Source: a virus | Taxonomy: Duplodnaviria > Caudoviricetes | Direction: 5' to 3' (one strand) | Length of the DNA stretch: 64,000 nucleotides | IMG/VR virus record: IMGVR_UViG_3300031555_003155 | Shown here: positions 3,779 through 60,239 of the stretch, piece by piece | How positions within the stretch are numbered: the stretch's first letter is position 1 | Layout of the letters: each line of letters starts with the position of its first letter | The notes under the pieces: model-generated | What the model was told of the DNA's origin: nothing | Database searches by the model: none | What the model saw: only the letters and a program-made list of their open reading frames with translations | Translations under genes and position numbers: made by a program

Positions 3779-3788
3779 ATAATATATA
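3779..3788 (-). promoter_or_regulatory. early-type promoter motif TATATATTAT
   Basis: Upstream of the sigma-like subunit gene. Confidence 0.65.
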
Positions 3789-4669: not shown

Positions 4670-6361
4670 TTATTCTCTTCTCATATCGGATTTGTTCATA
4701 ATAGAAATGTACTGATTACTTGAAATTAATAATGAAACTATTGATACTGTCGCTTTTAAGATTTCAATATCAGTAATGCACGAATTGATAATTGTATCAA
4801 CATATTCGTCTGTTATGAGATCATAACACACCAATTTATCATCATTATTATACAAGCACTTTTCTATCATAGATTCAATTTCATCATTCGACATATCGAT
4901 GAATTTATTCTTAAGTACAGTTGTATATACATTGATAAATGCCTGATAAATCATACTATATACAATATGTTCATTATCTTTAAGAGATGACGAAGTTTCG
5001 TTAAGAATATTATTAACAGTTTTAGGGATAATTAAACTACCACCACAGTTGTATCCATGCTTATATGCAGATTCACATGCCTTAATAGCATCTTCAACAA
5101 GATCGTAATTCGCTTTCTTTTCTAATGTAGAATATCCACCAACATGAATGATACCCATTGAACCTTTAAGTTTTGTGGCTCTCTGTTTAACTTCATTTAA
5201 TTTAGTATCGATTATGCCTTTATTACGATATTCTTCTTCCATAGCGTTATATTTAGCTTCAGCATCTTCAACGATTTTCTTATACATATTTTCATTTCGT
5301 TTAGTAAATCCTTTAACAAATGTAGTCTTACTATTTATAGAAATACTATCAACTTCACCAATAAAATCATATAATTTCTCTACATTAAATTCCGACGCAA
5401 CCTGTTCTGTTATTACTTCGCCACCAACCATAACTGCAAAGTCATTATACAATTCATGTGATAAGTTATTAACCAACGATACTCTAGTATATACAACATT
5501 AGATGTACCTCTAACTCTATATTCAGCCATTGTATCATTTTTAATTCTATCAAGTAAGAATGTATCATAGTTTGGCGCAACAACAACAAGTCTTCTATTG
5601 TTGGATGCAGCCAATCTCATAGCATCCTGGATAATTGGGTATGACATATCTAAATCAACTTTATGATTAAACATCAATAATGCAGGATTATCAATATCAC
5701 AAGAACCTGTATCTGTGTTTGTAAATATTGTATCGATATATGTTATATTAGCTTTATAACCACTTGATATAACTTCACATCTTGTTTCATCAGTTTTTGA
5801 CTGAATATATTCGATACTCGGATTATCGGTTTCTTTATAAATCCTTTGTATCATCGATGCGATATTATCATCACCATTTGTTGCGACATATGCAATTCGA
5901 TAAATTTCATCAAAAGTTTCTTTATTAATTTTATTAGAATTTGCATAAATTCTATCCGTGATGTTAGTTACACATTTATTAAGCAATTCCATAAAATCTT
6001 TAGGTCTAATATTATTTAAAAGGGATTTTCCTTTTTCAATTTCTGATAATATTGAATTAGCAGCAACGATTGATGATGTTGAGCCATCACCGACTTTAAT
6101 AACAACTTGGGCGCTAATTCTCAATAATAATAAAAGTATATTATTATCGATAGGGTCGTCAAATTTTATATTTTTTAATACTTGAAAACCGTCTTTTGTT
6201 ATATGCATTTCGCCATATTGTTCAATTATAGTTGTTGAGCCATATGGTCCTAATGTGTTTGTCAATACACCAGATACATAGTCAAATACCGCTCTGGTTT
6301 TAGTTCTAAATTCTTTTTCACTAATAACATTAGATGATAAGTTTAAGTTTTCTGTACTCAT
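4670..6361 (-). CDS. groEL: phage chaperonin (GroEL/Cpn60-like)
   Basis: TLGPYG, ITKDG, VGDGSTS, IHVGG...EKK...VEDA and GG motifs; no GGM tail. Confidence 0.92.
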   Translation of the reverse strand: MSTENLNLSSNVISEKEFRTKTRAVFDYVSGVLTNTLGPYGSTTIIEQYGEMHITKDGFQVLKNIKFDDPIDNNILLLLLRISAQVVIKVGDGSTSSIVAANSILSEIEKGKSLLNNIRPKDFMELLNKCVTNITDRIYANSNKINKETFDEIYRIAYVATNGDDNIASMIQRIYKETDNPSIEYIQSKTDETRCEVISSGYKANITYIDTIFTNTDTGSCDIDNPALLMFNHKVDLDMSYPIIQDAMRLAASNNRRLVVVAPNYDTFLLDRIKNDTMAEYRVRGTSNVVYTRVSLVNNLSHELYNDFAVMVGGEVITEQVASEFNVEKLYDFIGEVDSISINSKTTFVKGFTKRNENMYKKIVEDAEAKYNAMEEEYRNKGIIDTKLNEVKQRATKLKGSMGIIHVGGYSTLEKKANYDLVEDAIKACESAYKHGYNCGGSLIIPKTVNNILNETSSSLKDNEHIVYSMIYQAFINVYTTVLKNKFIDMSNDEIESMIEKCLYNNDDKLVCYDLITDEYVDTIINSCITDIEILKATVSIVSLLISSNQYISIMNKSDMRRE

Positions 6362-6388
6362 AAAATAAACCTCCTATTTATTATATAA

Positions 6389-6400
6389 TAAGTAATTGTT
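6389..6400 (-). promoter_or_regulatory. late promoter AACA-N6-TA
   Basis: AACAATTACTTA upstream of chaperonin. Confidence 0.65.
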
Positions 6401-6420
6401 GATAGTATAATAACTTTAAA

Positions 6421-7128
6421 CTAATATATTATATTTTTATCAACTCTGAATGTGCCAGATTTAAATATGTATTTTTTCATCTTTTCCTCAATCCCATCCA
6501 CATCTAATACGGCTTTCCCTTCTTTATTTTTTTTATAGTTCCAGCCACAATCTGCAATTAAAATATTTGTGTATTCAGCTTTACCAGCATTTATAATACC
6601 ATCGACTAATTTAATATCATTTATTATAAATGTGGTTATTTTCTCTTCAACGCTGTTTACGGCATCAATAAAGTCCCCAGTTATGTAATTTATTCTGTTC
6701 ATATCCTGATACGAATTTTGTATGTCTTCATGTATTCTTCTATCATATATTTCTGTGTGTATATAGATTTTTGTAACATATTTTTGTTTTAATAAGAAAT
6801 GTATACTGCTTCCTATTGCTAAATGCTTAGATTCAGAAAACATATCAGGAAAACTTGTATATAAACTGCTCATACATGCATGGTAATTAAATGGAACTTT
6901 CATGACTGTTTTTAAGATATTTTTATCTATACTCTTTACAACAAGTCCTAATAATTGACTATCGCTATAATCTTTGAACATATCGAAATCTATACAATAA
7001 TCATATCCTTTTCTATAATCTTCATTATATAGTAATCGAGTCAATAGATATGGTTTAAATGACTTTATAATATCATGATATTGTATAAATAAACATTCTT
7101 CACTATTTATATACTCATTATTTATCAT
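6421..7128 (-). CDS. hypothetical protein, possible degenerate HAD/NT5C-like fold
   Basis: LFIQYHD at motif I position, FIIND and ILIADCGWN near the C-terminus; catalytic DxD absent. Confidence 0.35.
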   Translation of the reverse strand: MINNEYINSEECLFIQYHDIIKSFKPYLLTRLLYNEDYRKGYDYCIDFDMFKDYSDSQLLGLVVKSIDKNILKTVMKVPFNYHACMSSLYTSFPDMFSESKHLAIGSSIHFLLKQKYVTKIYIHTEIYDRRIHEDIQNSYQDMNRINYITGDFIDAVNSVEEKITTFIINDIKLVDGIINAGKAEYTNILIADCGWNYKKNKEGKAVLDVDGIEEKMKKYIFKSGTFRVDKNIIY

Positions 7129-7156
7129 AAAAACTCCTCCGTTTCAAATGAAAAAA

Positions 7157-7184
7157 AAATAGAATGACAGAAGTCATTCTATTT
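7157..7184 (-). terminator. intrinsic terminator
   Basis: AAATAGAATGAC/GTCATTCTATTT stem with poly-T on the minus strand. Confidence 0.75.
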
Positions 7185-7193
7185 ATAGTTTAA

Positions 7194-7997
7194 TTAATTT
7201 AAATAATCTTCCATTTGGTCAAAGTTGCTTAATTGTGCAGCTTCTGCCATAGCTAATTCCGAGTCTTGTGTCGATTGTGAACCCCATGATGTTCTTTGTC
7301 CACTAAATCCCATACGACTAGCTCCTCTAGGTGTGACATTCGCTCCAACCTTTTCTCCAATAGATACAACAGCATCGTATAGTCTATCGTTAACGAATTT
7401 ATTTACATATCTATCAGAATGGGTTCCAGCATTGCTCATACCAACGATAGTACTCTTTAATAATTCAATAAATAATAATAATTCACTATACACCTTTGTT
7501 CCTAATGTATATTTACCTGTATTTGGGTCATAATCATCAATACTATCAATAGTTTTAAATTCATAGTATATTGACAATTCGGCTTTTTTAGTATCAGGAT
7601 TAATTCCTTTAAATAAAGCAAGGAATGGTCTGATTGAACCCGTGATACTTTTTCCTGTTCCAATAGCAATCATTCCATCATTACCAACCGCAACCCCAAT
7701 ACTTTTATCAGCATCATTTTCGATTGCAGGAATAATTTCTTTTGTAATTTTATACATTAATGACATAACTTTTTCTAAAGTTAATGATGTTTTAACAGAT
7801 TTCTCATAATCATAAAATCTATCATTGGTCTGTTTTGATGGTTCTAATGCCGGATTGATAGTTATTGTCATTTTATCATCCCAGAAACCAATATTCATTG
7901 CAGAAGGTTCGAAGCCTTCCCTATTCATAAAAGTATACCCGCGGGTATTTACACTCTGTTTGTCTTTACTATTATTTTGCTTATAACTTGAATTCAT
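7194..7997 (-). CDS. hypothetical protein, possibly ssDNA-binding
   Basis: Beta-rich core, G/S/Q-rich linker and acidic tail (FDQMEDYLN), as in SSBs; no firm motif. Confidence 0.4.
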   Translation of the reverse strand: MNSSYKQNNSKDKQSVNTRGYTFMNREGFEPSAMNIGFWDDKMTITINPALEPSKQTNDRFYDYEKSVKTSLTLEKVMSLMYKITKEIIPAIENDADKSIGVAVGNDGMIAIGTGKSITGSIRPFLALFKGINPDTKKAELSIYYEFKTIDSIDDYDPNTGKYTLGTKVYSELLLFIELLKSTIVGMSNAGTHSDRYVNKFVNDRLYDAVVSIGEKVGANVTPRGASRMGFSGQRTSWGSQSTQDSELAMAEAAQLSNFDQMEDYLN

Positions 7998-10089: not shown

Positions 10090-12042
10090 TTAGAGATTAA
10101 TAATATTACTAAAATACTCTTTCTTTGATGTCTTTATTGTCTCTAATCCTAAACTAGCTAATATTGGATAGAATTTTTTAAGTACATTATAAGCTAACGT
10201 ATCGTAGTCAATAAATTCTAATATCCAATCTGGTATTTTATCCAGATTTCTTGGAATTGCTATAACGGGCACACCTTTCGATGATATTCTTTTATCAGGA
10301 TGATTTAAAATATTTTTTTCTATAATATCATATATTTCACGGTTCCTGTATTTCAATTTTTGCAATTCACTCTCTTGTGTAAGAGTTAATTTAACAATAT
10401 CTACTTTTGCAGGGAGTTCTATGCTCATATCTGGGTGTAAATAATTCCATGTTATAATTGCCCTAACTCCTTGCTCTTTAAGAGGTTCAGTATATGCTCC
10501 TAACTCTTTTACTGATTTTGGAATAAGATAAGTTCTATCTCCATTTTCTAGAGATTTCATTATTTCGTTTTCAAATAGTTCTAAGTCTTGAAGGATTGTA
10601 GATATATTTATTTCTTTACTTTGAAGTACTCTCTTCTGTACTATATTCTGAAATCTGCTCTTTGTTTCTTCAGTTGCAGTAGATTTCATGAATTCATGTC
10701 CTTTTATATCTATCTTTTCTGGGAATATCTCATCACCCTCACGTAATCGTATACTAGATACATATTTCTTTTTCTTATTTGACAAAATCATTCTTGAAAA
10801 TAGGAACTCATTTTTCATATTAATTTTATCTCTATATTCTTCAGGAATATTAGCATTAAGTGTATATTTACCCAAAGAGTCACCTATCATATTGGTTATA
10901 ATATATGACATAGTATTTATAGAAATAAAACGAAGTTCTTCCCTGTCTCTATTTGAAAAATCATCATTTGGGTTTATTATTGTATTAAACATATATTCTA
11001 CCCAAGGATTTAAATTCAACATATTAGAATCAGTGTCTATAGTTATAACGCATTTTCTTTTATCATTCTTTAATCGCTGAATGCGGTTTATTGGGGAATG
11101 ATTATAAAATACGAAATCTTTATAATACTCCCACAATTCTTTTAAGTGTCCTTCAATGCTCTCAGGAACTTTATTTGGATCTTTAAATTCTGTACTATTA
11201 TAAATTATGCTTGTTAATATTTGTTGTATGATATCTATATTAGAAAATTCATATAGATTATTTTTATAATATATTTTATTTAAATCTATTTGACTTAATG
11301 AAGATAAATATTCATAAATGATCTCCGTGTACGAATCTCTATAATCATAAAACATATTTATGATTCGACTTAGTACACTGCTTATAGATACATCTGGCAA
11401 TATATTAACATCATGTGAATATTCTTCATCTAATATATTAGATATGAATGACATACACTCATTTATATTATTGAATGCAACATTATTAGCCATAAATGAT
11501 TCAAATGCCAATTCTGTTGTGCTTATCAATGACTGTCCTGTTCCTGTTACAGATGGAGCAGTATATTTATTATGAAGAAATGATATTGCATTTCCAAATG
11601 TTCCATAAATTGAGTTAGCATTAACTTTTTCAGACATCTGTTTTCTATCATATGTTTTATATTCATATGATGTTTTGTCTGGTATAAATCTAAGTTTTCC
11701 TTTGAACAATTTACGACTTGTTAAAAATTTTTGTATCATTATAGCTAACGGATTTATCACTTCATGTTGATTTTTATAAAATACACCAAATCCACCACAT
11801 ATAGGTTTAGTTGTTTTTACCCAATCATATACTTCTAATAATGAAGATTTAATACTAACATTAGCGTAGTTATTATCGATAATACACTCAGGGTTATTTA
11901 AATTATTTTTAATAATTTCATCTAAAAACAAATTAATTTCTTTTTTAGATATTTCGGGATGCATTCTTTTTAAAATCTTTCTAACTTTTCTTCTCCATTC
12001 AGTTATAAATATGTGTTTTTGTTGTTTACTCAATGAATTCAC
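10090..12042 (-). CDS. family B DNA polymerase, C-terminal half (motifs B and C, thumb)
   Basis: QMSEKVNANSIYG (motif B), TIDTDS (motif C), KKKY, IKG; no exonuclease domain or motif A. Confidence 0.85.
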   Translation of the reverse strand: MNSLSKQQKHIFITEWRRKVRKILKRMHPEISKKEINLFLDEIIKNNLNNPECIIDNNYANVSIKSSLLEVYDWVKTTKPICGGFGVFYKNQHEVINPLAIMIQKFLTSRKLFKGKLRFIPDKTSYEYKTYDRKQMSEKVNANSIYGTFGNAISFLHNKYTAPSVTGTGQSLISTTELAFESFMANNVAFNNINECMSFISNILDEEYSHDVNILPDVSISSVLSRIINMFYDYRDSYTEIIYEYLSSLSQIDLNKIYYKNNLYEFSNIDIIQQILTSIIYNSTEFKDPNKVPESIEGHLKELWEYYKDFVFYNHSPINRIQRLKNDKRKCVITIDTDSNMLNLNPWVEYMFNTIINPNDDFSNRDREELRFISINTMSYIITNMIGDSLGKYTLNANIPEEYRDKINMKNEFLFSRMILSNKKKKYVSSIRLREGDEIFPEKIDIKGHEFMKSTATEETKSRFQNIVQKRVLQSKEINISTILQDLELFENEIMKSLENGDRTYLIPKSVKELGAYTEPLKEQGVRAIITWNYLHPDMSIELPAKVDIVKLTLTQESELQKLKYRNREIYDIIEKNILNHPDKRISSKGVPVIAIPRNLDKIPDWILEFIDYDTLAYNVLKKFYPILASLGLETIKTSKKEYFSNIINL

Positions 12043-12624: not shown

Positions 12625-12634
12625 ATAATATATA
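12625..12634 (-). promoter_or_regulatory. early-type promoter motif TATATATTAT
   Basis: Upstream of macrodomain gene. Confidence 0.65.
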
Positions 12635-13238: not shown

Positions 13239-13248
13239 TATATATTAT
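13239..13248 (+). promoter_or_regulatory. early-type promoter motif TATATATTAT
   Basis: Upstream of the polymerase exonuclease half. Confidence 0.65.
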
Positions 13249-13325: not shown

Positions 13326-15164
13326 ATGAAATTTTTGGGACCAAATGTAGACAAAGATAATATAATGCTATTAGATGTTTTATATCATAATGGTAATAAA
13401 GACACAGAATATACTGATTATATTGATATTATCTACAAGAATACAAAAAGTGGAGAGAAATTATTAAAAACTATAGAAAAGCCAGAAATAGAAATTTATT
13501 TCACTAAAGAAGAATATAGAGATTATGATTATAATAAAACTTTTATGGAATTGGACAAGACAGAAAAGCATACTGTTCCATATAAATCATTGCCATGGTA
13601 TATAGCAAAACAGGCTGGAGAACAATATGTATCTCAATTAAAAAATTATATAGAATTGGGTAAATATAGAGATATATCTAAAATTCATGCATATCCATAT
13701 GTATTTGGTTCAGATTGTCCTATAGATGCATTTTATAGAGTCAATTGGTTATTAGAATATGATAATGAAGCCGAGAAGAAAGTTACAAAACAATTTCTCG
13801 ATATTGAGGTTGATACAATAGATATTGAGGGCTTCCCAAGAGATGGAGAATGTCCTATTAATGCAGTAACTATTGTTGACGAAGAAGGTATGGCATGTTA
13901 TACATTCTTATTAAATAATCCCAATAATCCTTTAATAAAAGAATTTATAGATGATATAGATTCATTTATAGATGAACTGCATGATATGTTCGATGAATCC
14001 TATGGGGTGCTGGATTATCAGATATATATGTATGATGATGAAAGAGACCTAATAATTAGCACATTTAGATTAATCAATACATTGAAGCGCGATTTTATGT
14101 TAATATGGAATGGTGGTGGGTTTGATATACCATATATGATTGAAAGAATAAAAGTATTGGGGTTGAAACCTGAAGATGTTATGTGTCATTCTGACTTTCC
14201 TGTTAAACGATGTAGATTTATTAAAGATACTAAAAACTTTGCAGTCGCGAATAAAGGTGATTGTTTAAAATTATCATCATATACTAAATATATAGACCAA
14301 ATGATATTATATGCAGCAACACGTAAAGGACAAAGCGAACTTCGTTCTCATTCATTGAACTTTATAGCACAACATGAATTAAATGATGATAAGTTAAATT
14401 ATGATGATGAAGCAAACATCAAAACTTTACCATATAAAAATTATAGAAAATTTGTAGCATATAATATAAAGGACGTTTTGCTTCAATTTGGTATCGAAAG
14501 AAAAACTAATGATGTTGATGGACTTTATTTACGTTCATATTCAAATGCAACAGATTATGATAAAATATTCAAACAAACGGTTATGCTTAAATGTCGTGCC
14601 TATTACGAATTTTTATTACAAGGCTATATTATTGGTAATAATATAAACGTCTTTATACCGAATGATGGGGAAACTTTTGCTGGGGCAATAGTTGGAGATC
14701 CGATGTTAAATTCTCATACAGGAATATCGATATTTGGTAAAAAAAGTATGTTTGTCTATGATAATGTAACAGATATGGATTTCTCTGCAATGTATCCCCA
14801 TATAATTATTGCATTTAATATTGAAAGAAATACTATGATAGGAAAACTAATTATACCAGGTTTTGAAGAGGACAGATATGAGCATTTCTATATAACAAGT
14901 AATACGGCGACACAAACAGAAGATGATGAAGAAGAGGATGATGAAAACGATTCATTATCATCAACATATGATGCTGGTAAAGACTATGTGGATAATATGT
15001 TGTGTGGAGATGTTATTAGTTTAGGAACAAAATGGCACAATTTACCTGATTTTGAAACTCTATATATGGAATTCAGAAAACAGTATAATATAAAACCAAA
15101 AGACAGATTTTCATTATCTCGTATAACGAAAAAATTTATAGAAGCAATAAAAATTGATATATAG
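13326..15164 (+). CDS. family B DNA polymerase, N-terminal half (3'-5' exonuclease + motif A)
   Basis: ExoI FLDIEV, ExoII WNGGGFDIPY, ExoIII YNIKDV, FAGAIV, motif A DMDFSAMYPHII. Confidence 0.88.
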   Translation: MKFLGPNVDKDNIMLLDVLYHNGNKDTEYTDYIDIIYKNTKSGEKLLKTIEKPEIEIYFTKEEYRDYDYNKTFMELDKTEKHTVPYKSLPWYIAKQAGEQYVSQLKNYIELGKYRDISKIHAYPYVFGSDCPIDAFYRVNWLLEYDNEAEKKVTKQFLDIEVDTIDIEGFPRDGECPINAVTIVDEEGMACYTFLLNNPNNPLIKEFIDDIDSFIDELHDMFDESYGVLDYQIYMYDDERDLIISTFRLINTLKRDFMLIWNGGGFDIPYMIERIKVLGLKPEDVMCHSDFPVKRCRFIKDTKNFAVANKGDCLKLSSYTKYIDQMILYAATRKGQSELRSHSLNFIAQHELNDDKLNYDDEANIKTLPYKNYRKFVAYNIKDVLLQFGIERKTNDVDGLYLRSYSNATDYDKIFKQTVMLKCRAYYEFLLQGYIIGNNINVFIPNDGETFAGAIVGDPMLNSHTGISIFGKKSMFVYDNVTDMDFSAMYPHIIIAFNIERNTMIGKLIIPGFEEDRYEHFYITSNTATQTEDDEEEDDENDSLSSTYDAGKDYVDNMLCGDVISLGTKWHNLPDFETLYMEFRKQYNIKPKDRFSLSRITKKFIEAIKIDI

Positions 15165-24008: not shown

Positions 24009-26219
24009 CTATTCATTCAATTCATCAAATAAATCTAATGGCATATCGTCAAGAGTTTCGTCCATATCTAAATCCATGTTTTCAGAACTGCTAACAAATT
24101 TAATATTTCTATTAAATAAATCGGATTCTCTTTGAGCTTTTGCCATTTCATTTCTTATTTTAAGTTCGTACTCATCAAGTTTTCGCGGTTGAGGAATGTT
24201 ATTTGTTTTCTTTTTGCCTGATGCCATATCCAATTCTTCATGAGTAACTAATCCTCGCTTATCTTCTATTAGTTGTTTCACATTGTCAATGACATTTATT
24301 TCATCTAATGATGTAAAGTTTACACCTTTAAAGAATTCTTTATCATTTTCTGATAAATAATCTTCCATTTGGTCATATGTCATGCCCTTATTTCGATTAT
24401 CTTCATCCGGCAATTGACCTCTAACGAAACCAAATCTGTGTAGATTATTACCGTAATAATATAAATACAGACACATAAGATAAGACATAATAGAGTCGTC
24501 GTGGAACCCTGGTCCGGCAGCGATTTTCCCTGTCTTTGTGCGAACAAGTTTCATTAAATCATTTATTATGTTATTTGTAATAAATTTATCTTTATAATCT
24601 TTTATGTGTCCTTCAAGTAAACTAAACATAAGCTCTCTTGATTTACCTTGTGTGTAAATACCATATAACTTTCTTCGTTTAGCCTCTCGAACCAACATAC
24701 CTTGTGCATCAAGTTTATCATCAATATTACTACCAACCATATCCTTACTATTATCAAAATAGATATTTCCTCGTATATCGGTATCACGCAGATGATCAAG
24801 AACTGCTTCACCATTCGCGTTTCGTTCTATCGCCAATATAGAACGGGGCAAATGTTTTCTAACCAATACATATAAGAACTTTATTAAATCCTTTACACCT
24901 ATATTTGCTGACATAAATTCTGCTGCAGGCTGAATAGTATATGGGTCGAATATAGTTACGGCAGAGTTATCTTCACCATATCCATTTGCGACATCGACCC
25001 CTATGAAATAGCATTTATCTTTACGTAAAGGCTCATATATATCTAATTTGAATAATTTATTTATAAATATCTCTTCTTTTATTTGTCCTTTCAATTCTTC
25101 TATTCGAGCCAAATCTTCCGGTTCATATGGAGATTGAGATGAACCTCTTAATCTTTGAAGGAATATTTCTCTCTTTATTTTTAATGGATTATTATTTAAC
25201 AGCGAGCATACTTTATTGAACCAAACATCATCTTTACCGAGCTGTGTATATGAATATTCTATATACACAATATTATTTCCAGAGTTTATTTCAATATATT
25301 CCTTTACATCTTCTATAGGCTTATCATAAAAATGCTCTGTCCATTTACATGTATTTTCAACAACAGCCAATGCATCCTGACCAGACTGTGAGTCTAAGTC
25401 GCCCGGTGTGCTTGTGAATACACGACAGTACATAGCATTATTTCTTTTAGCATTCTCAGATGCAGTATTATATGCAGGACCTGAGGCTTCCATAATAGTT
25501 TTAACAAAATCTATAAACTCAAACTCATCATAGTATTGGATAGGCTGAGTCGCACCACGCCCTATCTTTTCTGCTTGAACAAGAGATCTTGCTGATGATT
25601 TTGTCACTATACTATTATTATTTGAGCCGTTTTTCAAAGTTTTAACGTTATCTGTAGCTTTTATTTCATTACCCTCTTCATCATACGCAATTTTAAATTG
25701 TAAATATTTAGGTAATAAATCTCTCTGGTCTTTTAAACGAGATAAGTTTTCAATTGCTTTATCTGCAAGCATGTTTATAAACATTATTTCCGAGTCAGTT
25801 GTTCCTAATAAAAATGTCCAGTTAATTATAGCAACAGTAGACTGCGTTTTACCTATCTGACGTGGTATTACTAGGTAATGGTCTATACCATTTAAAAAAC
25901 ACCAAGTTGCTGCTAGGTTTGCTCTATTTAATTGGTATGGGACGCCTTTTGGGTTACCTTGGTCGGGTATTCTTGCAACTTCTCGTAAAAAATACCAAGG
26001 ATTGACTATACACTCATTCACAATTCTAATGATCTGGTCATTAGATAAATAAGGGGAGTATGGGTCTACTCCCCTTAATGATGGATCATATAGAGCAAGG
26101 AAAAACATATTATTTTTTATTCCTAAACGTTTTAAATCGACCGCAGTTTGAATAAAGGATATATTGGTAGTTTCTGTATCATATATATACCGGCGTTTGA
26201 CCATAATATAGTCCTCCAT
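24009..26219 (-). CDS. terL: terminase large subunit
   Basis: Walker A PRQIGKT, Walker B YYDEFEF, coupling motif TSTP, nuclease GVDVANG...DNSA, IERN, HDDSIM. Confidence 0.93.
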   Translation of the reverse strand: MEDYIMVKRRYIYDTETTNISFIQTAVDLKRLGIKNNMFFLALYDPSLRGVDPYSPYLSNDQIIRIVNECIVNPWYFLREVARIPDQGNPKGVPYQLNRANLAATWCFLNGIDHYLVIPRQIGKTQSTVAIINWTFLLGTTDSEIMFINMLADKAIENLSRLKDQRDLLPKYLQFKIAYDEEGNEIKATDNVKTLKNGSNNNSIVTKSSARSLVQAEKIGRGATQPIQYYDEFEFIDFVKTIMEASGPAYNTASENAKRNNAMYCRVFTSTPGDLDSQSGQDALAVVENTCKWTEHFYDKPIEDVKEYIEINSGNNIVYIEYSYTQLGKDDVWFNKVCSLLNNNPLKIKREIFLQRLRGSSQSPYEPEDLARIEELKGQIKEEIFINKLFKLDIYEPLRKDKCYFIGVDVANGYGEDNSAVTIFDPYTIQPAAEFMSANIGVKDLIKFLYVLVRKHLPRSILAIERNANGEAVLDHLRDTDIRGNIYFDNSKDMVGSNIDDKLDAQGMLVREAKRRKLYGIYTQGKSRELMFSLLEGHIKDYKDKFITNNIINDLMKLVRTKTGKIAAGPGFHDDSIMSYLMCLYLYYYGNNLHRFGFVRGQLPDEDNRNKGMTYDQMEDYLSENDKEFFKGVNFTSLDEINVIDNVKQLIEDKRGLVTHEELDMASGKKKTNNIPQPRKLDEYELKIRNEMAKAQRESDLFNRNIKFVSSSENMDLDMDETLDDMPLDLFDELNE

Positions 26220-26222
26220 TCA

Positions 26223-27206
26223 TTAGCGTTTTAATAATAACTCCCTATCGACAGAATATTTATCGTTATTCAGCAATTTAGCATGGTTTATAAACCACTC
26301 ATCATCATATCCTAATTCTCTATAAGAATATTCAATACCAATATAATTGGTCAAACTATCTCTGCGGAGTTTATCCTTAACCGCTTCGATAGAAAGATCG
26401 TAAAACCAATCTTCCCAATGTAGTGATGTTTCGACGAACATTGCAATTTTATCATATTCAGGCATTTCATCAGGAATTATTTCTGTTGGTAATATAGAAT
26501 ATGATTTTGTTTCCATAGGAAGTGATGTTAATAAATCTGTAGTAACTGCCATTATTTCAAAATCCGGATATACAGAAATATTGTCTTTATTTTCATTTCT
26601 AATATCTTCAATTGTGCGTTTACTAACAGGAAATTTACTAGCTTCTAATTTTATCTCACCAGTATCGACGCGAGTTATCGTATAATTTTCTTTATCATAT
26701 ATTACTTTCTTTGCCATATATTCTGGCAAAGAATCAATTATATCACAAATAAATATGAAGAAAAGATTACCGAAATTATATATATCATTAATAATAATCT
26801 TATTATAATCTTTTCCAAATAATAATTCCCACACCATCATTGCTGCAGAACAATGCATATTATATGTAAATCTAGGTGTGACTATATGGTTATTTATATT
26901 ATTTATACAGCAATATACTGATGCCAGTTTTGCTAAATCTAGTTTATACTGAGTAGTTCCACCATCTGCAGTTTTAAATCTTACAATATTTCTTAAAAAA
27001 TACCATACATTATCTTCGCATTCAGAATTTATGATAGATATTTCCCCATCAGTTAATGATGGGGAAAATATATCCAATTCATCAGCAGAAGGATTTAATG
27101 TTTTTAAAAAGAAATCATTATTCATAACATGCTTATTTTTTAATAATTCCGATACATTTACAAATGACTCGTTAATTTGCATGTTTAAACCCTCCTTATA
27201 TAACAT
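26223..27206 (-). CDS. degenerate paralog of the terminase ATPase domain
   Basis: Colinear with TerL N-half (NNDFFL/NNMFFL, NVWYFLR/NPWYFLR, IEYSYRELGYDDEWF/IEYSYTQLGKDDVWF) but Walker A and B are altered. Confidence 0.8.
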   Translation of the reverse strand: MLYKEGLNMQINESFVNVSELLKNKHVMNNDFFLKTLNPSADELDIFSPSLTDGEISIINSECEDNVWYFLRNIVRFKTADGGTTQYKLDLAKLASVYCCINNINNHIVTPRFTYNMHCSAAMMVWELLFGKDYNKIIINDIYNFGNLFFIFICDIIDSLPEYMAKKVIYDKENYTITRVDTGEIKLEASKFPVSKRTIEDIRNENKDNISVYPDFEIMAVTTDLLTSLPMETKSYSILPTEIIPDEMPEYDKIAMFVETSLHWEDWFYDLSIEAVKDKLRRDSLTNYIGIEYSYRELGYDDEWFINHAKLLNNDKYSVDRELLLKR

Positions 27207-36589: not shown

Positions 36590-36645
36590 ATAATATATAT
36601 CCATATGCATGTAATATACGATTTTTTATTTTAATTATATATTAT
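36590..36645. promoter_or_regulatory. divergent pair of early-type promoter motifs
   Basis: TATATATTAT at 36590-36599 (minus) and 36636-36645 (plus). Confidence 0.65.
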
Positions 36646-41919: not shown

Positions 41920-42264
41920 CTATTCGGCACATAATCTGAAGAATATCTCATCACAAAGATATTTTACTACAATATGAGTTATCATACTGACGTCATCTTT
42001 TGACGAGTTCATTATTTCGATAAGAATTTTATAATTCTTCACAAATAACCATGCATTAAAAACTTCTAATCGCATATTATCGGGCTCTTTATAACTCATA
42101 TAGTGTTTGACAAATTGATTTTCTATATAATCCAACCCATCATGCCTTCTTAAATTTATAACTGAATCTGTAACATCATATTTCCTTCTCATAGCATAAA
42201 TCTCATTCATAACGGTATTAAAATTTGTAACATCTAATTCTCTAAAAGTATCCATAGTAATCAT
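41920..42264 (-). CDS. hypothetical early protein
   Basis: 114-aa ORF with early motif at 42311-42320. Confidence 0.65.
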   Translation of the reverse strand: MITMDTFRELDVTNFNTVMNEIYAMRRKYDVTDSVINLRRHDGLDYIENQFVKHYMSYKEPDNMRLEVFNAWLFVKNYKILIEIMNSSKDDVSMITHIVVKYLCDEIFFRLCAE

Positions 42265-42310: not shown

Positions 42311-42320
42311 ATAATATATA
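42311..42320 (-). promoter_or_regulatory. early-type promoter motif TATATATTAT
   Basis: Upstream of 41920..42264. Confidence 0.6.
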
Positions 42321-42388: not shown

Positions 42389-45300
42389 ATGATTACAATG
42401 AAGACTACAAAATATAAAAAACTCAAATGCCCTTTATGCGATGACTCATATACAAAAATAGAGGGGCTTTACGCACATATTGAAGATGAACATGATGATG
42501 AACTTCCACAAAATTATACCCCTGCAAGATATTTATATTATTTAAAAACAGGAAGAACTTCAGGAAGTTGTGTCATTGACCATAAACCAACAGATTGGAA
42601 TGAATCTACAGGGAAATATAATAGATTTTGTAATAACCCAAAATGTAAAGAAAAATATAGAGAAGAGTTTAAGAAACGCATGATGGGTAAATATGGTAAA
42701 GTTAATTTATTAAAAGACCCAGAGCAACAGAAAAAGATGTTAGCACATAGAAAAATCTCCGGAGAATATGTGTGGACTGATGGAACTAAAGTCACATATA
42801 CAGGTAGCTATGAAAAAGAATTTTTGCAGTTCTTAGACGTATTTATGAATTTTGAAAGTTCTGATATTATGGCTCCGTCACCACACACATATTACTATAC
42901 ATATAATGGAGAAAAATTATTCTACATACCAGACTTCTTTATACCATCATTAAACTTAGAAGTTGAAATAAAAGATGGTGGAGATAACGCTAATAAACAT
43001 CCAAAAATCCAAGCTGTTGATAAAGTTAAAGAAAAATTAAAAGATGAAGTTATGAAAACCCAAAAAGACTATGATTATATAAAAATAGTTAATAAAAATT
43101 ATGATAACTTCTTCGAATATTTATTATCCCAAAAAGAAAGTGTCGAGTCTAAAAAATCCGGAGCAGCAGGAACTATATTGACTGAAAGTATTAATAACTT
43201 CGATTTATTATTAGAAATGGATATTGATTATGATTTACGATTCACCAAATCAATTAAACAAACAAAAGAAATAATCGACACACTGGATGAGGAAGATATA
43301 AAGAGTATTAATATACCAAAAACTCAAAATCCAAATTATTCGATATATAGAGAGGTTGCTGTATTCGGTGGTGTTCCTGTAGCATTCATCGAAGTGTTTC
43401 AATTTCCGAATATGAAAAAAGATGAGGCTGCAATAATATTAGTATGTCGAACTGAAAAGAAATACAAAGGATATCATAATTCAGCACTACTTATAATGCG
43501 AATGCTTAATGCATTGCGTAATGAAAGCATAAGAACCGTTAAATGGGTATTTAATAACACTAATGAGAAAACGGCACTGAATAAAAAGAATTTTAAACTT
43601 AAACCGAATGGTGAAATTGTGTTGGAAGATTCTAATACAATATGTGAAGATCCTCATCTATTTCCTGGAGAAGACAAATTAAATGCGGTAAAAACTTCTA
43701 TAAAAAATGATACTGTTATAGTATTAAATATTGATGAGTTCCCACAAAATACGTTTATTACATCCGATTTGCATTTATATCGAAATAATGATGGGAGCAA
43801 CGTTGCGGAGATGGTTAAGAATATAAATGCTAATGTTAAGCATGATGATACATTAATTATTCTTGGTGACATCGGATATAAAAAAGACCCAGATATGAAA
43901 GAGCATATTGAAAGATTTTTAAACGATATAAACTGTTCTCATATATGGTTGGTTATCGGTAACCATGATATATTAGATATTGATGATTATATTGAGCTAG
44001 GATTTGAAAAGGTGTGTCATAGAATTAATTATAGAGGTCATTCGTTGACACACTACCCAATACACAATTCCGATGGAATATCTGTACATGGACATCTCCA
44101 TAATGAGTATCTTCCGTTTGAAGATGAACCTACTGACGATGAAAGATTTCGCAACGTATATTATTACACCAGACCAATTAAGAGTATTAATGAGTACATT
44201 AATGAAAATATGATTTTAGATGAAGGTCTATTTAATTTTAAAGGACGTCAATTATATTATATATCAAAAAATAAAAATGAAAAATTTAATAAATCAACAG
44301 TATTTACTGCAGATAAAAAGAAAGCATTGTCCTGGTTTATGGAACAAAATAGCAATATAAAATATAAGGAAATAAAAAAATCAGAATATTCATCATGGTT
44401 TAAAGATACGACTGAATTGGTTATTGATAAATCATTAGAAGGTAGAATAAATGATAAAGTATACCTATACACTGTTAGTAAGTCTGCATTTGATTCTATT
44501 GAAGAGTATGGTAACTATATTAAAGATATAGAAAAGCTTAATATATTAAATACGGAAGAGATTAAACTGATAGATTTGATACAGCAGGTTGGAATTAAAG
44601 TTACATTTAATACATCAAATCCTGCGGAAATATCCAATAGAAAAAAGATTGTGTCAACTCTTCGTAGCAGATTTCAATCATTAATATCTAAATCAGATTA
44701 TGTGAAATTTAAAACAACAAAAAGTTTAATTCTTGATTTAGATTCTGAGGATGTTGAGGATTTTGTTAATGGAAATTCTGATAGATTGTCATTTATTCAT
44801 TATGATTTAAATAAGTTTTACAATAATAAAGCAAGACAATATATGAATGAAGATTCAGCAAAAGAATATTCAGATCTATATAAAGCATTCACAAATGAAT
44901 TGTTATCGGATAAGACATTATCTAAAATAACTATAAAATCGGATGGTGATTGGGATGATGGTAAATACTCTGCAGTAATTAAATCTGATAATAAGAGCAT
45001 AATGGAATCATCTGAATCTTCTATATTAGAAGCTAATTTCGGTGGATTCTTAACAAAAAAAGAAATAAATCCATCAAAAATAAAAACTCCTAAAGATTTA
45101 TTAAATGTATTAAATACTTGGGGATATGGATTATTAACTAAGAATAAAGAAGTTATAACTAATGATATTGAACCCGAGCAATTCGCAGATTTATACAGAA
45201 CCATATCGCCACAAGATTTTGAAAAATATAAAGTTGGTGTGTGTTGGGACTATACTGAATATGAAAGATATTATTTCAAAAAATACTTTGATTATAAATT

Positions 45301-45760
45301 CAAGACATACTATATAGAATTGGATAATTTATCTTCATCAACTCATACATTTTTAGTGTATGAAGACTCTGGTAAATATTACTATTTTGAATCATCATAC
45401 AGAAGATATCAGGGTATACATGTATTTGAAACAATGCAGGATGTATTCAACTATGTATTAACTGCTATGTTTAGAGATGAGGGTAGAACGTATCCTTATG
45501 CTATATATGAATATACCGAAATGCCTTCAGGATTAACTACTTTAGGATTTATGGATATGCTTATAGTAAATGGTAAAAAAATATATCACACATATAAACT
45601 ATATCGTTTAACAGAAAGTGTGGATATTCCTGTATTAAAATCGGAATATCCTAAATGCACTATGAGATGTTCATTAATGAGCAAGTATGCTGATAGAGGT
45701 ATTGATTGTAGGAAAAATTGCAGACATTATGCTAATATGCTAACACACATTGAAGAATAA
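42389..45760 (+). CDS. multidomain late protein: C2H2 Zn finger + PD-(D/E)XK nuclease, GNAT-like, metallophosphoesterase, ART-like/unknown, transglutaminase/papain-like
   Basis: CPLC...H...H; YIPDFF...EVEIK; SDLH, GD, GNHD, HGHLH; GVCWD...THTFLV...YYFE. Confidence 0.75.
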   Translation: MITMKTTKYKKLKCPLCDDSYTKIEGLYAHIEDEHDDELPQNYTPARYLYYLKTGRTSGSCVIDHKPTDWNESTGKYNRFCNNPKCKEKYREEFKKRMMGKYGKVNLLKDPEQQKKMLAHRKISGEYVWTDGTKVTYTGSYEKEFLQFLDVFMNFESSDIMAPSPHTYYYTYNGEKLFYIPDFFIPSLNLEVEIKDGGDNANKHPKIQAVDKVKEKLKDEVMKTQKDYDYIKIVNKNYDNFFEYLLSQKESVESKKSGAAGTILTESINNFDLLLEMDIDYDLRFTKSIKQTKEIIDTLDEEDIKSINIPKTQNPNYSIYREVAVFGGVPVAFIEVFQFPNMKKDEAAIILVCRTEKKYKGYHNSALLIMRMLNALRNESIRTVKWVFNNTNEKTALNKKNFKLKPNGEIVLEDSNTICEDPHLFPGEDKLNAVKTSIKNDTVIVLNIDEFPQNTFITSDLHLYRNNDGSNVAEMVKNINANVKHDDTLIILGDIGYKKDPDMKEHIERFLNDINCSHIWLVIGNHDILDIDDYIELGFEKVCHRINYRGHSLTHYPIHNSDGISVHGHLHNEYLPFEDEPTDDERFRNVYYYTRPIKSINEYINENMILDEGLFNFKGRQLYYISKNKNEKFNKSTVFTADKKKALSWFMEQNSNIKYKEIKKSEYSSWFKDTTELVIDKSLEGRINDKVYLYTVSKSAFDSIEEYGNYIKDIEKLNILNTEEIKLIDLIQQVGIKVTFNTSNPAEISNRKKIVSTLRSRFQSLISKSDYVKFKTTKSLILDLDSEDVEDFVNGNSDRLSFIHYDLNKFYNNKARQYMNEDSAKEYSDLYKAFTNELLSDKTLSKITIKSDGDWDDGKYSAVIKSDNKSIMESSESSILEANFGGFLTKKEINPSKIKTPKDLLNVLNTWGYGLLTKNKEVITNDIEPEQFADLYRTISPQDFEKYKVGVCWDYTEYERYYFKKYFDYKFKTYYIELDNLSSSTHTFLVYEDSGKYYYFESSYRRYQGIHVFETMQDVFNYVLTAMFRDEGRTYPYAIYEYTEMPSGLTTLGFMDMLIVNGKKIYHTYKLYRLTESVDIPVLKSEYPKCTMRCSLMSKYADRGIDCRKNCRHYANMLTHIEE

Positions 45761-45780
45761 CAAAAAAAAATAATATTAAT

Positions 45781-45813
45781 GGAGAGTAGGATTATAAAAC
45801 AATCCTACTCTCC
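45781..45813. terminator. bidirectional terminator
   Basis: GGAGAGTAGGATT/AATCCTACTCTCC between convergent genes. Confidence 0.8.
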
Positions 45814-45826
45814 CTTTTATATGCTG

Positions 45827-47233
45827 TTAGTTGGACGATTCATCATCACCAAACAGCGCCGTATTTAAATCCGCAAAGTTTTTCGAAATAATCTCACAAA
45901 TAGTACCACAAATGTTCTCAATCTGATTTGTGTCAAAACGACGCTCACCAATCGAATATGTAAAAGAAGCAGTATTAATGCGTACACCTCGAAAACTCTT
46001 TTTGAAGTCTATATTATCAAAAATAGAATATTCTGGATCGTTACAAACAGCATACATATCGGCAGGAACTGAAGCTTCGCCCGGAAACATATTCAGCTTA
46101 GCACAGATTTCATCTACAATATCATATGCATATATACCATCATATTGCCAATCGAGATTTATGATGAAATTCGTTGTTCCAGGTCTATCGATACATACTA
46201 ATCCATTATCGATAAAGTTACACACCATTTCATATCTAATATCCATAGCGGCTTCAACAGCGTTCGAGAAGTTCACCGATAACGCATATTCACCGGCAGC
46301 AATTTTTCCACAAAGTTCGAGAATATTATCACACTCTGTCCCACTAAGGCATATTGAATTGGTAACTAGATTTTCTATAGATAGTTCTCTGACATGGGAG
46401 ATATGAGAACTATCTTCAAGTTCGCATGCAATATTATAGGTTAATGCTACCCATTCATCTGGACCTCCAAAAATACCGTTAGTTTTACATAATACTATAT
46501 CATAACCAAGACTGTTCTTATCGTCAAGGTCTGTACGAAACAATCCTAATGTATCATAACAACCTGCAGCAATCGGCGCACCGATTTCAGTAATATTAGC
46601 TATTAAAATACAATCATATTCATAAATCTCTTCCTTGATAGTATTAACGGCATTTGCAATATCATAATAATTAATACACCTGTCAAGATCTGTAAAAAAT
46701 ACATCCGGGAGTTCATCAACATATATTACATACGGGTCAGTATCATTTATCTTTTTAAATAACTTTTGATAAAACTCATCATATGTCATTTTAGGAGTCT
46801 CGAAAAACGATATAGCATCATTGTGAGATAATGATGGTACTGAGCTGATATCTCTGCCGATAAAAAACTCATCCCTAGTAATAACGAGAAGCCCATCCCC
46901 TTTATTACTCTTAATAATACCATCTTCAAGATGTGAAAATAATTCTTTAGGTGGGTAGATTGATGTCAACGCTCTATATATTCCGTTCGTATTAAACACA
47001 TCATCCCATATATCATTACACAAACGTTCCAATTGTTTTTGAACATAATAATCATTAATAAGATCTGAAGCGATTGCATGGTTCATTAATGATTTTGCTT
47101 TCAAATTAAGTTTTGTGTAATTAGGTCGCAAATCAATGCATCCTTCATACTCTGCGAATATACCCTCAATGATATTATACGCATCATTAGGATTCGTAGA
47201 TTTGTCCAATTTTTCATTTTCATAATTTTTCAT
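45827..47233 (-). CDS. degenerate serine hydroxymethyltransferase-like protein (fold-type I PLP fold, Schiff-base Lys missing)
   Basis: NITEIGAPIAAG vs DMAHVAGLVAAG; DIVLCKTNGIFGGP vs HVVTTTTHKTLAGP; GVRINTASFT vs GIRVGTPAIT. Confidence 0.65.
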   Translation of the reverse strand: MKNYENEKLDKSTNPNDAYNIIEGIFAEYEGCIDLRPNYTKLNLKAKSLMNHAIASDLINDYYVQKQLERLCNDIWDDVFNTNGIYRALTSIYPPKELFSHLEDGIIKSNKGDGLLVITRDEFFIGRDISSVPSLSHNDAISFFETPKMTYDEFYQKLFKKINDTDPYVIYVDELPDVFFTDLDRCINYYDIANAVNTIKEEIYEYDCILIANITEIGAPIAAGCYDTLGLFRTDLDDKNSLGYDIVLCKTNGIFGGPDEWVALTYNIACELEDSSHISHVRELSIENLVTNSICLSGTECDNILELCGKIAAGEYALSVNFSNAVEAAMDIRYEMVCNFIDNGLVCIDRPGTTNFIINLDWQYDGIYAYDIVDEICAKLNMFPGEASVPADMYAVCNDPEYSIFDNIDFKKSFRGVRINTASFTYSIGERRFDTNQIENICGTICEIISKNFADLNTALFGDDESSN

Positions 47234-47270
47234 TACATAACTTCCTTTCTCTTTATATAGTTATATGATT

Positions 47271-47280
47271 ATAATATATA
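47271..47280 (-). promoter_or_regulatory. early-type promoter motif TATATATTAT
   Basis: Upstream of SHMT-like gene. Confidence 0.65.
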
Positions 47281-47300
47281 TTCAAATCTACACACAAATT

Positions 47301-47342: not shown

Positions 47343-47756
47343 ATGGGTTGTGTGTTTTGTGAAAAAAATCATGCTGGTGCTAAAATAAAAGACAATATGG
47401 AATCTAGCAAGCATTACTTGACGTGTGATGGCAAAAAACTATTCTTAACAACAAGTGATTATAAATACAAAGGTTGTTTCGATATTAAATTTTGTCCAGT
47501 ATGTGGACGAGAATTAATCAGTCCCATATATAGTTTATATAGGGGATGTAAACAGTGCAGGTATCATGATGTGTGTGTGAAACGTCATAAAAATAGGTAT
47601 TGTATTGAGTATAAAGCGATGTTCGGATGTAGTGAATTTAGTGATAAGGAACGTAGTAAATCGACATTTATAACAGTTAGTAAATTAATAATTAAACGAA
47701 TACACTTCGCTATATATAAACTACAGCCAAAAGCTAATAAAAAAACGGACATGTAA
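47343..47756 (+). CDS. Cys-rich zinc-binding hypothetical protein
   Basis: CVFC, IKFCPVCGREL, CKQC...C...C. Confidence 0.65.
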   Translation: MGCVFCEKNHAGAKIKDNMESSKHYLTCDGKKLFLTTSDYKYKGCFDIKFCPVCGRELISPIYSLYRGCKQCRYHDVCVKRHKNRYCIEYKAMFGCSEFSDKERSKSTFITVSKLIIKRIHFAIYKLQPKANKKTDM

Positions 47757-50549: not shown

Positions 50550-50559
50550 TATATATTAT
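50550..50559 (+). promoter_or_regulatory. early-type promoter motif TATATATTAT
   Basis: Upstream of 50632. Confidence 0.65.
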
Positions 50560-60229: not shown

Positions 60230-60239
60230 ATAATATATA
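60230..60239 (-). promoter_or_regulatory. early-type promoter motif TATATATTAT
   Basis: Upstream of 59876..60103. Confidence 0.55.

Follow-up and report, generated by a model that had tools for sequence, protein, structure and literature searches.

The locus and its genomic setting

On the minus strand of the window (the whole 64-kb stretch of phage DNA that was analyzed), we found an intact open reading frame (ORF) of 468 codons with no internal stop (Table 1). Its product, referred to here as P0001, has a pI of 4.27, a net charge of approximately -42, and 16 cysteines. The DNA is 34% G+C, and no ORF longer than 158 aa occurs in the other five frames across this region. Both flanking genes are located on the plus strand; the ORF converges at its 3' side with a 1123-aa multidomain gene, and the gene divergent from it at the 5' side is small and Cys-rich. 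The hairpin between the two convergent genes scored positive as a terminator in both directions. Reading along the strand of P0001, GAATATATATTAT-AATCAT-A is followed by AAAGGAAG, seven nucleotides, and the ATG. With its own promoter motif, ribosome-binding site (RBS), and terminator hairpin, the P0001 gene would thus form a stand-alone, monocistronic transcription unit. An intact ORF with an RBS had been reported in a preliminary description of this DNA, and both were recovered here (AAAGGAAG at 47248-47241).

Summing contig depth in three feces metagenomes also gave values over 45757-45813 and 47182-47295 that were 5-10x those across the gene body. Over these terminator and promoter-RBS regions, the surplus depth came from other contigs matching with 5-8 mismatches, which indicates that the short signal sequences are repeated elsewhere in the phage or its relatives.

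Table 1. Features of the P0001 locus, selected genes of the window, and P0001 counterparts of E. coli serine hydroxymethyltransferase (SHMT) residues, with the role of each residue in E. coli SHMT in parentheses.
Feature	Coordinates	Strand	Description
ORF for P0001	45827..47233	-	468 aa; probably a diverged SHMT-fold protein, apparently without PLP site
RBS AAAGGAAG	47241..47248	-	7 nt before ATG; identified by inspection of the sequence
AR9-type early (virion RNAP) promoter-like element	47264..47283	-	GAATATATATTAT, N6 (AATCAT), A
Two-way terminator hairpin	45781..45813		13-15 bp stem; separates the P0001 ORF from the convergent 1123-aa gene
TATATATTAT copies, examples	577-586, 3779-3788, 12625-12634, 13239-13248, 36590-36599
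TATATATTAT copies, further examples	36636-36645, 42311-42320, 47271-47280, 50550-50559, 60230-60239
1123-aa gene	42389-45760	+	AR9-like Zn-finger endonuclease (aa 12-249), calcineurin-type phosphoesterase (aa 450-620), about 500 further residues with no family match
137-aa gene	47343-47756	+	8% cysteine, several CxxC pairs, pI 9.4
DNA polymerase, first gene	10090-12042	-
DNA polymerase, second gene	13326-15164	+
Terminase large-subunit match	24009-26219	-	phrog_32359, 1.8e-49
Terminase large-subunit match	26223-27206	-	phrog_32359, 1.2e-18
S97, G98 (PLP phosphate)			deleted in P0001
S99 (PLP phosphate)			I107
H126 (stacks on PLP ring)			S134
S175 (O3')			T181
D200-M-A-H203 (D200, pyridine N1; H203, O3')	46586..46597	-	N213-I-T-E216; D200 to N213, H203 to E216
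T226-T-H-K229-T230 (K229, Schiff base in the T-T-T-H-K-T motif)	46472..46486	-	K250-T-N-G253-I254; K229 to G253
R235 (active-site Arg)			D259
G262, G263 (partner-subunit phosphate loop)			C301, D302
E57 (general acid/folate loop)			deleted, inside the A-E-G gap
Y64, Y65 (folate loop)			L68, E69
R363 (substrate carboxylate)	45980..45982	-	R418, kept; GVRINT against GIRVGT

The gene content of the window includes a split DNA polymerase, RNA polymerase beta-type pieces, GroEL, RNase H, a primase, a terminase, a major head protein, and a tail sheath. The N-terminus of the 1123-aa neighbor shares 48% identity with the Zn-finger endonuclease that Bacillus phages AR9 and PBS1 encode. The window phage is an AR9/phiKZ-like giant phage from the animal gut, having in common with AR9 the split RNA polymerase and DNA polymerase genes and the Zn-finger endonuclease homolog, whereas AR9 carries no homolog of P0001.

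Several further features of the window were recorded. The Cys-rich 137-aa neighbor is probably a small zinc-binding protein. The two DNA polymerase genes are separate and on opposite strands, with a phosphatase-like gene and a small virion-protein-like gene between them. Among the two adjacent terminase-like genes, the upstream one (327 aa) spans the N-terminal ATPase part alone and may represent a paralog or one piece of a split terminase. An MITM start common to two divergent genes near 42250/42389 was considered and dropped, the inverted repeat there being weak (22 nt, 77% complementary).

Sequence similarity of P0001 to SHMT

We compared P0001 with the E. coli SHMT, GlyA, and with further family members. 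The BLASTP alignment to E. coli GlyA was colinear, with residues 254-449 against 230-390 at an E-value of 0.005. Smith-Waterman scores (BLOSUM45) were then expressed as z-values against 100-200 composition-preserving shuffles. The four best values were 9.0 for Providencia, 8.7 for Aeromonas, 8.1 for Enterococcus, and 7.7 for E. coli GlyA, the last ranging over 6.5-7.9 across shuffle sets, while Bacillus, Staphylococcus, and Lactobacillus GlyA gave 3.6-5.5 and all 15 housekeeping-type GlyA tested spanned 2.1-9.0. The pattern was unchanged when windowed shuffles were used. By comparison, the z against P0001 was at most 2.7 for 26 further E. coli PLP enzymes of fold type I, drawn from classes I/II, III and V and from the beta-eliminating lyases, and 36 other proteins of the window phage reached at most 2.4 against GlyA. 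By these alignment statistics, the similarity of P0001 to GlyA exceeds chance.

Identity to E. coli GlyA amounts to 78/371 positions (approximately 21%), and the matches to SHMT are colinear over the whole length both in a global BLOSUM45 alignment and in a MAFFT alignment with SHMTs. The preliminary description had aligned the protein by eye with SHMT along its length, an assignment with which the colinear matches, the SHMT-specific z-values, and the structural neighbors described below agree. Most of its motif pairs recur in the BLASTP, global BLOSUM45, and MAFFT alignments, namely (phage against SHMT) NYT with NYT, SLSH with HLTH, DPYVIYV with KPKMIIG, ILIANITEIGAPIAAGCY with LFVDMAHVAGLVAAGVY, FGGP with LAGP, GTTNFI with GTDNHL, and GVRINTA with GIRVGTP. 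The pairing of LERLCNDIWDDVF with VEQLAIDRAKELF did not recur and was rejected, the computed alignments placing the phage KELF (96-99) on the E. coli KELF (83-86). The reading of SLSH was also corrected, as it is His137 that corresponds to the retained H129, and the PLP-stacking H126 is replaced by Ser134.

Family-level searches with P0001 were largely blank. In Pfam, PF00464 was absent even at an E-value of 10, short of its gathering threshold of 27 bits, and the PHROGs and PDB sequence searches returned noise matches only. An HMM built from 20 SHMT sequences scored P0001 at -0.1 bits (rank 8 among 2001 decoys), and hhalign against SHMT aligned the C-terminal motif alone, at an E-value of 0.078. 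The diverse SHMTs used for comparison were drawn from plasmid and phage records. Searched against five bacterial genomes, one of them E. coli K-12, P0001 gave no match at an E-value of 10, which places the similarity to SHMT below genome-scale significance.

Structure prediction was examined as well. The ESM Atlas model of the exact P0001 sequence is of low confidence (pLDDT 0.56, pTM 0.59), and its ten nearest structural neighbors are all SHMT clusters (TM 0.56-0.59), matching over approximately 350 residues that span 6-462. AlphaFold2, run with no alignment, gave a pLDDT of 35, and a homodimer prediction with ESMFold2 scored 0.00, with the partner's own fold uncertain. Of the profile and structure searches that had been proposed as a check on the assignment, the profiles thus yielded no PF00464 match and the structural comparison, made with a low-confidence model, returned SHMT for the ten nearest neighbors. 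The ESM Atlas model suggests that P0001 probably keeps the fold-type-I PLP-enzyme architecture. Taking the sequence and structural comparisons together, we regard descent of P0001 from SHMT as very probable.

Loss of the cofactor site

The active site was compared in an alignment of P0001 with 19 SHMTs from bacteria, archaea, and one phage, in which P0001 keeps 14 of the 66 invariant SHMT columns. As aligned, every contact to PLP appears replaced or lost (Table 1). The counterpart of DMAH is NITE (N213..E216) and that of THKT is TNGI (T251..I254), both as first read by eye; an Asn stands for the pyridine-N Asp, and a Gly occupies the column of the Schiff-base Lys. Lys250 falls in the T226 column, three residues upstream of Gly253. 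These residue assignments depend on an alignment at approximately 21% identity, and a 3-residue insertion would set CK250T on HK229T; even in that register, the rest of the cofactor site would be gone. The most reliable calls are those in the D200/H203 block, within ILIANITEIGAPIAAGCY, and in the K229/R235 block, as identities on the flanks (AAGxY and GP) anchor them. Residues of SHMT that are retained in P0001 include Y55, N102, H129, T227, N347, R363 (as R418), and R372.

Compared to E. coli GlyA (b2551, EC 2.1.2.1, PF00464), P0001 shares the motifs NYT, KELF, hL(S/T)H, AAGxY, GP, GTxN, and G(I/V)RxxT and keeps the equivalent of Arg363. In contrast, the PLP contacts, the E57/Y64/Y65 loop, and the GGQGGP loop appear to be lost. 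P0001 additionally carries four insertions amounting to about 50 extra residues, and it is both more acidic than GlyA (pI 6.0) and richer in cysteine (3 in GlyA).

SHMT-family genes have been encountered before in phages. ORF008c of the Aeromonas T4-like phage 44RR2.8t is an ordinary SHMT by its Pfam E-value of 9.8e-180 (PMC1524935). We found that this working enzyme and those of phages 31 and Riv-10 are 52-54% identical to E. coli GlyA, while the alignment of P0001 with the Riv-10 SHMT gave a z of only about 2. The window phage resembles these phages as a large lytic phage with an SHMT-family gene, but P0001 differs from their enzymes in being unrecognizable to profiles and in apparently having no cofactor site. 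The existence of genuine SHMTs in Aeromonas T4-like phages makes an ancestral working copy plausible. Our literature searches returned no description of a phage SHMT pseudoenzyme.

An early-promoter motif upstream of P0001

The region upstream of the P0001 gene was compared with the promoters of AR9. The AR9 early promoters, which are read by the virion RNA polymerase, have the consensus AAATATATATTAT-N6-G(+1), and the late ones AACA-N6-TA/G (PMC5312081). The motif GAATATATATTAT occupies 47283-47271 on the minus strand, with an inferred +1 at the A in 47264, and the promoter-like element ends 37 nt before the ATG. It matches the AR9 early consensus at 12 of 13 positions and in the correct orientation, in keeping with the early promoter claimed for this gene previously. 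It differs from the AR9 early promoters in having G as its first base and A as its inferred +1.

The exact core TATATATTAT was found in 15 copies in the window, with 12 of these being intergenic. Most intergenic copies are aimed at a nearby gene start, and a purine lies 7 nt downstream in 11 of the 12. Conservation in the window phage is confined to TATATATTAT itself and, in contrast to AR9, does not extend to the three bases preceding it. This core looks like the phage's own early-promoter consensus. By analogy to AR9, the P0001 gene would be an early gene.

Distribution of the gene and signs of selection

We searched for relatives of P0001 in 5.8 billion proteins and in 1.84 billion representatives, recovering either P0001 itself or nothing. 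The same outcome was obtained in IMG/VR viral contigs and JGI metagenome contigs, and tblastn against phage records, AR9 included, gave no homolog at E-values of 1e-3 and 10. Near-identical phage DNA is present in several animal feces metagenomes, and a slightly different strain occurs in a bovine gut metagenome.

The closest relative that was retrieved is IMGVR_UViG_3300029305_003178 (227 kb, 92% complete), which shares the 582-aa neighbor at 36% identity. No match to P0001 or to PF00464 was found in this phage, and the slot of the P0001 gene is taken by an ORF of 410 aa that is unrelated but oriented the same way (locus coordinates 6357-7589). This indicates a variable accessory-gene position beside a conserved gene of 540-582 aa, and the P0001 gene is a lineage-specific accessory gene in that variable slot. 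As the relative lacks it, the gene also does not belong to a strategy conserved across the clade. A thymidylate synthase of the ThyA type is encoded by the relative (PF00303, 284 bits; 202995-203783), and ThyX was not found in it. These observations suggest that this AR9-like clade makes dTMP and has no uracil DNA. Doubt therefore falls on the earlier premise that the phage has uracil DNA and lowers dTTP.

Evidence on selection was drawn from field sequences and from the gene itself. One field variant was recovered, on a 377-nt bovine-gut contig of depth 4, carrying H52Y, P94S, and G114V. These are three non-synonymous and no synonymous changes over 125 codons, tiny numbers at low depth; the variant gives no sign of purifying selection and fits relaxed constraint. 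Contigs from three sequencing runs were fragmentary, identical to the window, and uninformative on selection. The frame nonetheless stays open over 468 codons at 34% G+C despite divergence to approximately 21% identity, and the flanking signals are intact. This long open frame and the intact signals suggest that the gene may have been kept by selection.

Possible roles of P0001

The observations above support the label of a pseudo-SHMT under an early promoter. Our favored reading, which we consider reasonably likely, is that P0001 is an early accessory protein that uses an SHMT scaffold for binding and not for catalysis. P0001 would be a very diverged SHMT descendant whose whole cofactor site and folate/general-acid loop have been lost, and which for that reason could not act as an SHMT or as an ordinary PLP enzyme. 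The early promoter would be read by the injected virion RNA polymerase, and this promoter, together with the RBS and terminator, makes production of P0001 within the first minutes of infection probable. The protein would then act by binding a ligand or a protein as opposed to catalysis, with one-carbon or serine-glycine metabolism as an obvious, if unproven, candidate target area. A narrower proposal, which we hold to be unlikely, is that a captured SHMT has become a cofactor-less early protein docking on a host component of one-carbon metabolism, serine-glycine metabolism, or nucleotide supply. Docking candidates may include GlyA itself, a GlyA partner, or a defense sensor of folate or nucleotide stress. 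If this were true, host metabolism would be rewired in the first minutes of infection, and P0001 would exemplify a phage pseudoenzyme serving as a metabolic decoy.

The preliminary description had suggested that the protein could poison host GlyA or act as a folate sink, mixed dimers or folate uptake cutting methylene-THF and dTMP. Active sites in SHMT are shared between the subunits of an obligate dimer, which together with the early-promoter motif and the retained equivalents of R363, N347, and Y55 would suit this idea. However, the cross-dimer elements E57, Y64, Y65, and the GGQGGP loop are deleted or replaced, and co-assembly with the host enzyme is unlikely at approximately 21% identity. 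The ThyA of the relative uses methylene-THF, and depleting the pool would harm such a phage; a phage making dTMP consumes methylene-THF, which argues against a shutdown of host SHMT as well as against the dTTP-lowering premise. The relative also lacks the P0001 gene. Poisoning or sequestration was left unsupported and somewhat disfavored, and we judge it very unlikely. It is quite unlikely that P0001 is still an enzyme, whether a PLP enzyme working through the shifted Lys250 or one with a cofactor-independent activity on the old scaffold. In SHMT, Thr226 lies close to C4' of PLP, so that Lys250 would stand near this atom from the Thr226 column, or on K229 itself given the 3-residue insertion; the carboxylate-binding Arg is retained, and the long open frame favors a function. 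Against this, changes extend to the pyridine-N Asp, the stacking His, R235, the O3' contacts, and both phosphate loops, and we know of no fold-type-I enzyme that functions without an Asp or Glu at N1.

Two further explanations would deny P0001 a function or a kinship with SHMT. The gene could be the decaying, functionless relic of a once-useful phage SHMT like the enzymes of Aeromonas T4-like phages, which we consider rather unlikely. Real SHMTs are present in phages (PMC1524935), the catalytic residues are all gone, the field variant holds three non-synonymous codon changes to no synonymous one, and the gene is missing from the relative phage. Yet the absence of any stop in 468 AT-rich codons at approximately 21% identity would be unexpected for unselected sequence, because stop-like triplets would make up an estimated 7% of codons at this composition, and the gene keeps an intact promoter motif, RBS, and terminator. 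The resemblance to SHMT could also be due to chance, in which case P0001 would be unrelated to the family. The Pfam, PHROGs, PDB sequence, and genome-scale searches and hhalign returned no significant match, and neither AlphaFold2 nor ESMFold2 was confident on the fold. This explanation nevertheless appears highly improbable, as among 27 fold-type-I enzymes only SHMT gave z-values as high as 7.7-9.0, its matches to P0001 run colinearly along the full length, and the ten best structural neighbors are all SHMT.

The P0001 gene is known from one phage lineage, and its case carries a caution for annotation. Pfam, PHROGs, and HMMER all miss P0001, and its origin was revealed only by targeted pairwise statistics together with a language-model fold. 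Auxiliary metabolic genes of phages are normally read as working enzymes, whereas P0001 would be a scaffold with no cofactor site that is yet kept as an early unit. If the binding role proves true, P0001 would give a compact means of studying how the one-carbon metabolism of the host is manipulated by giant phages, and it would provide an example of a viral pseudoenzyme.
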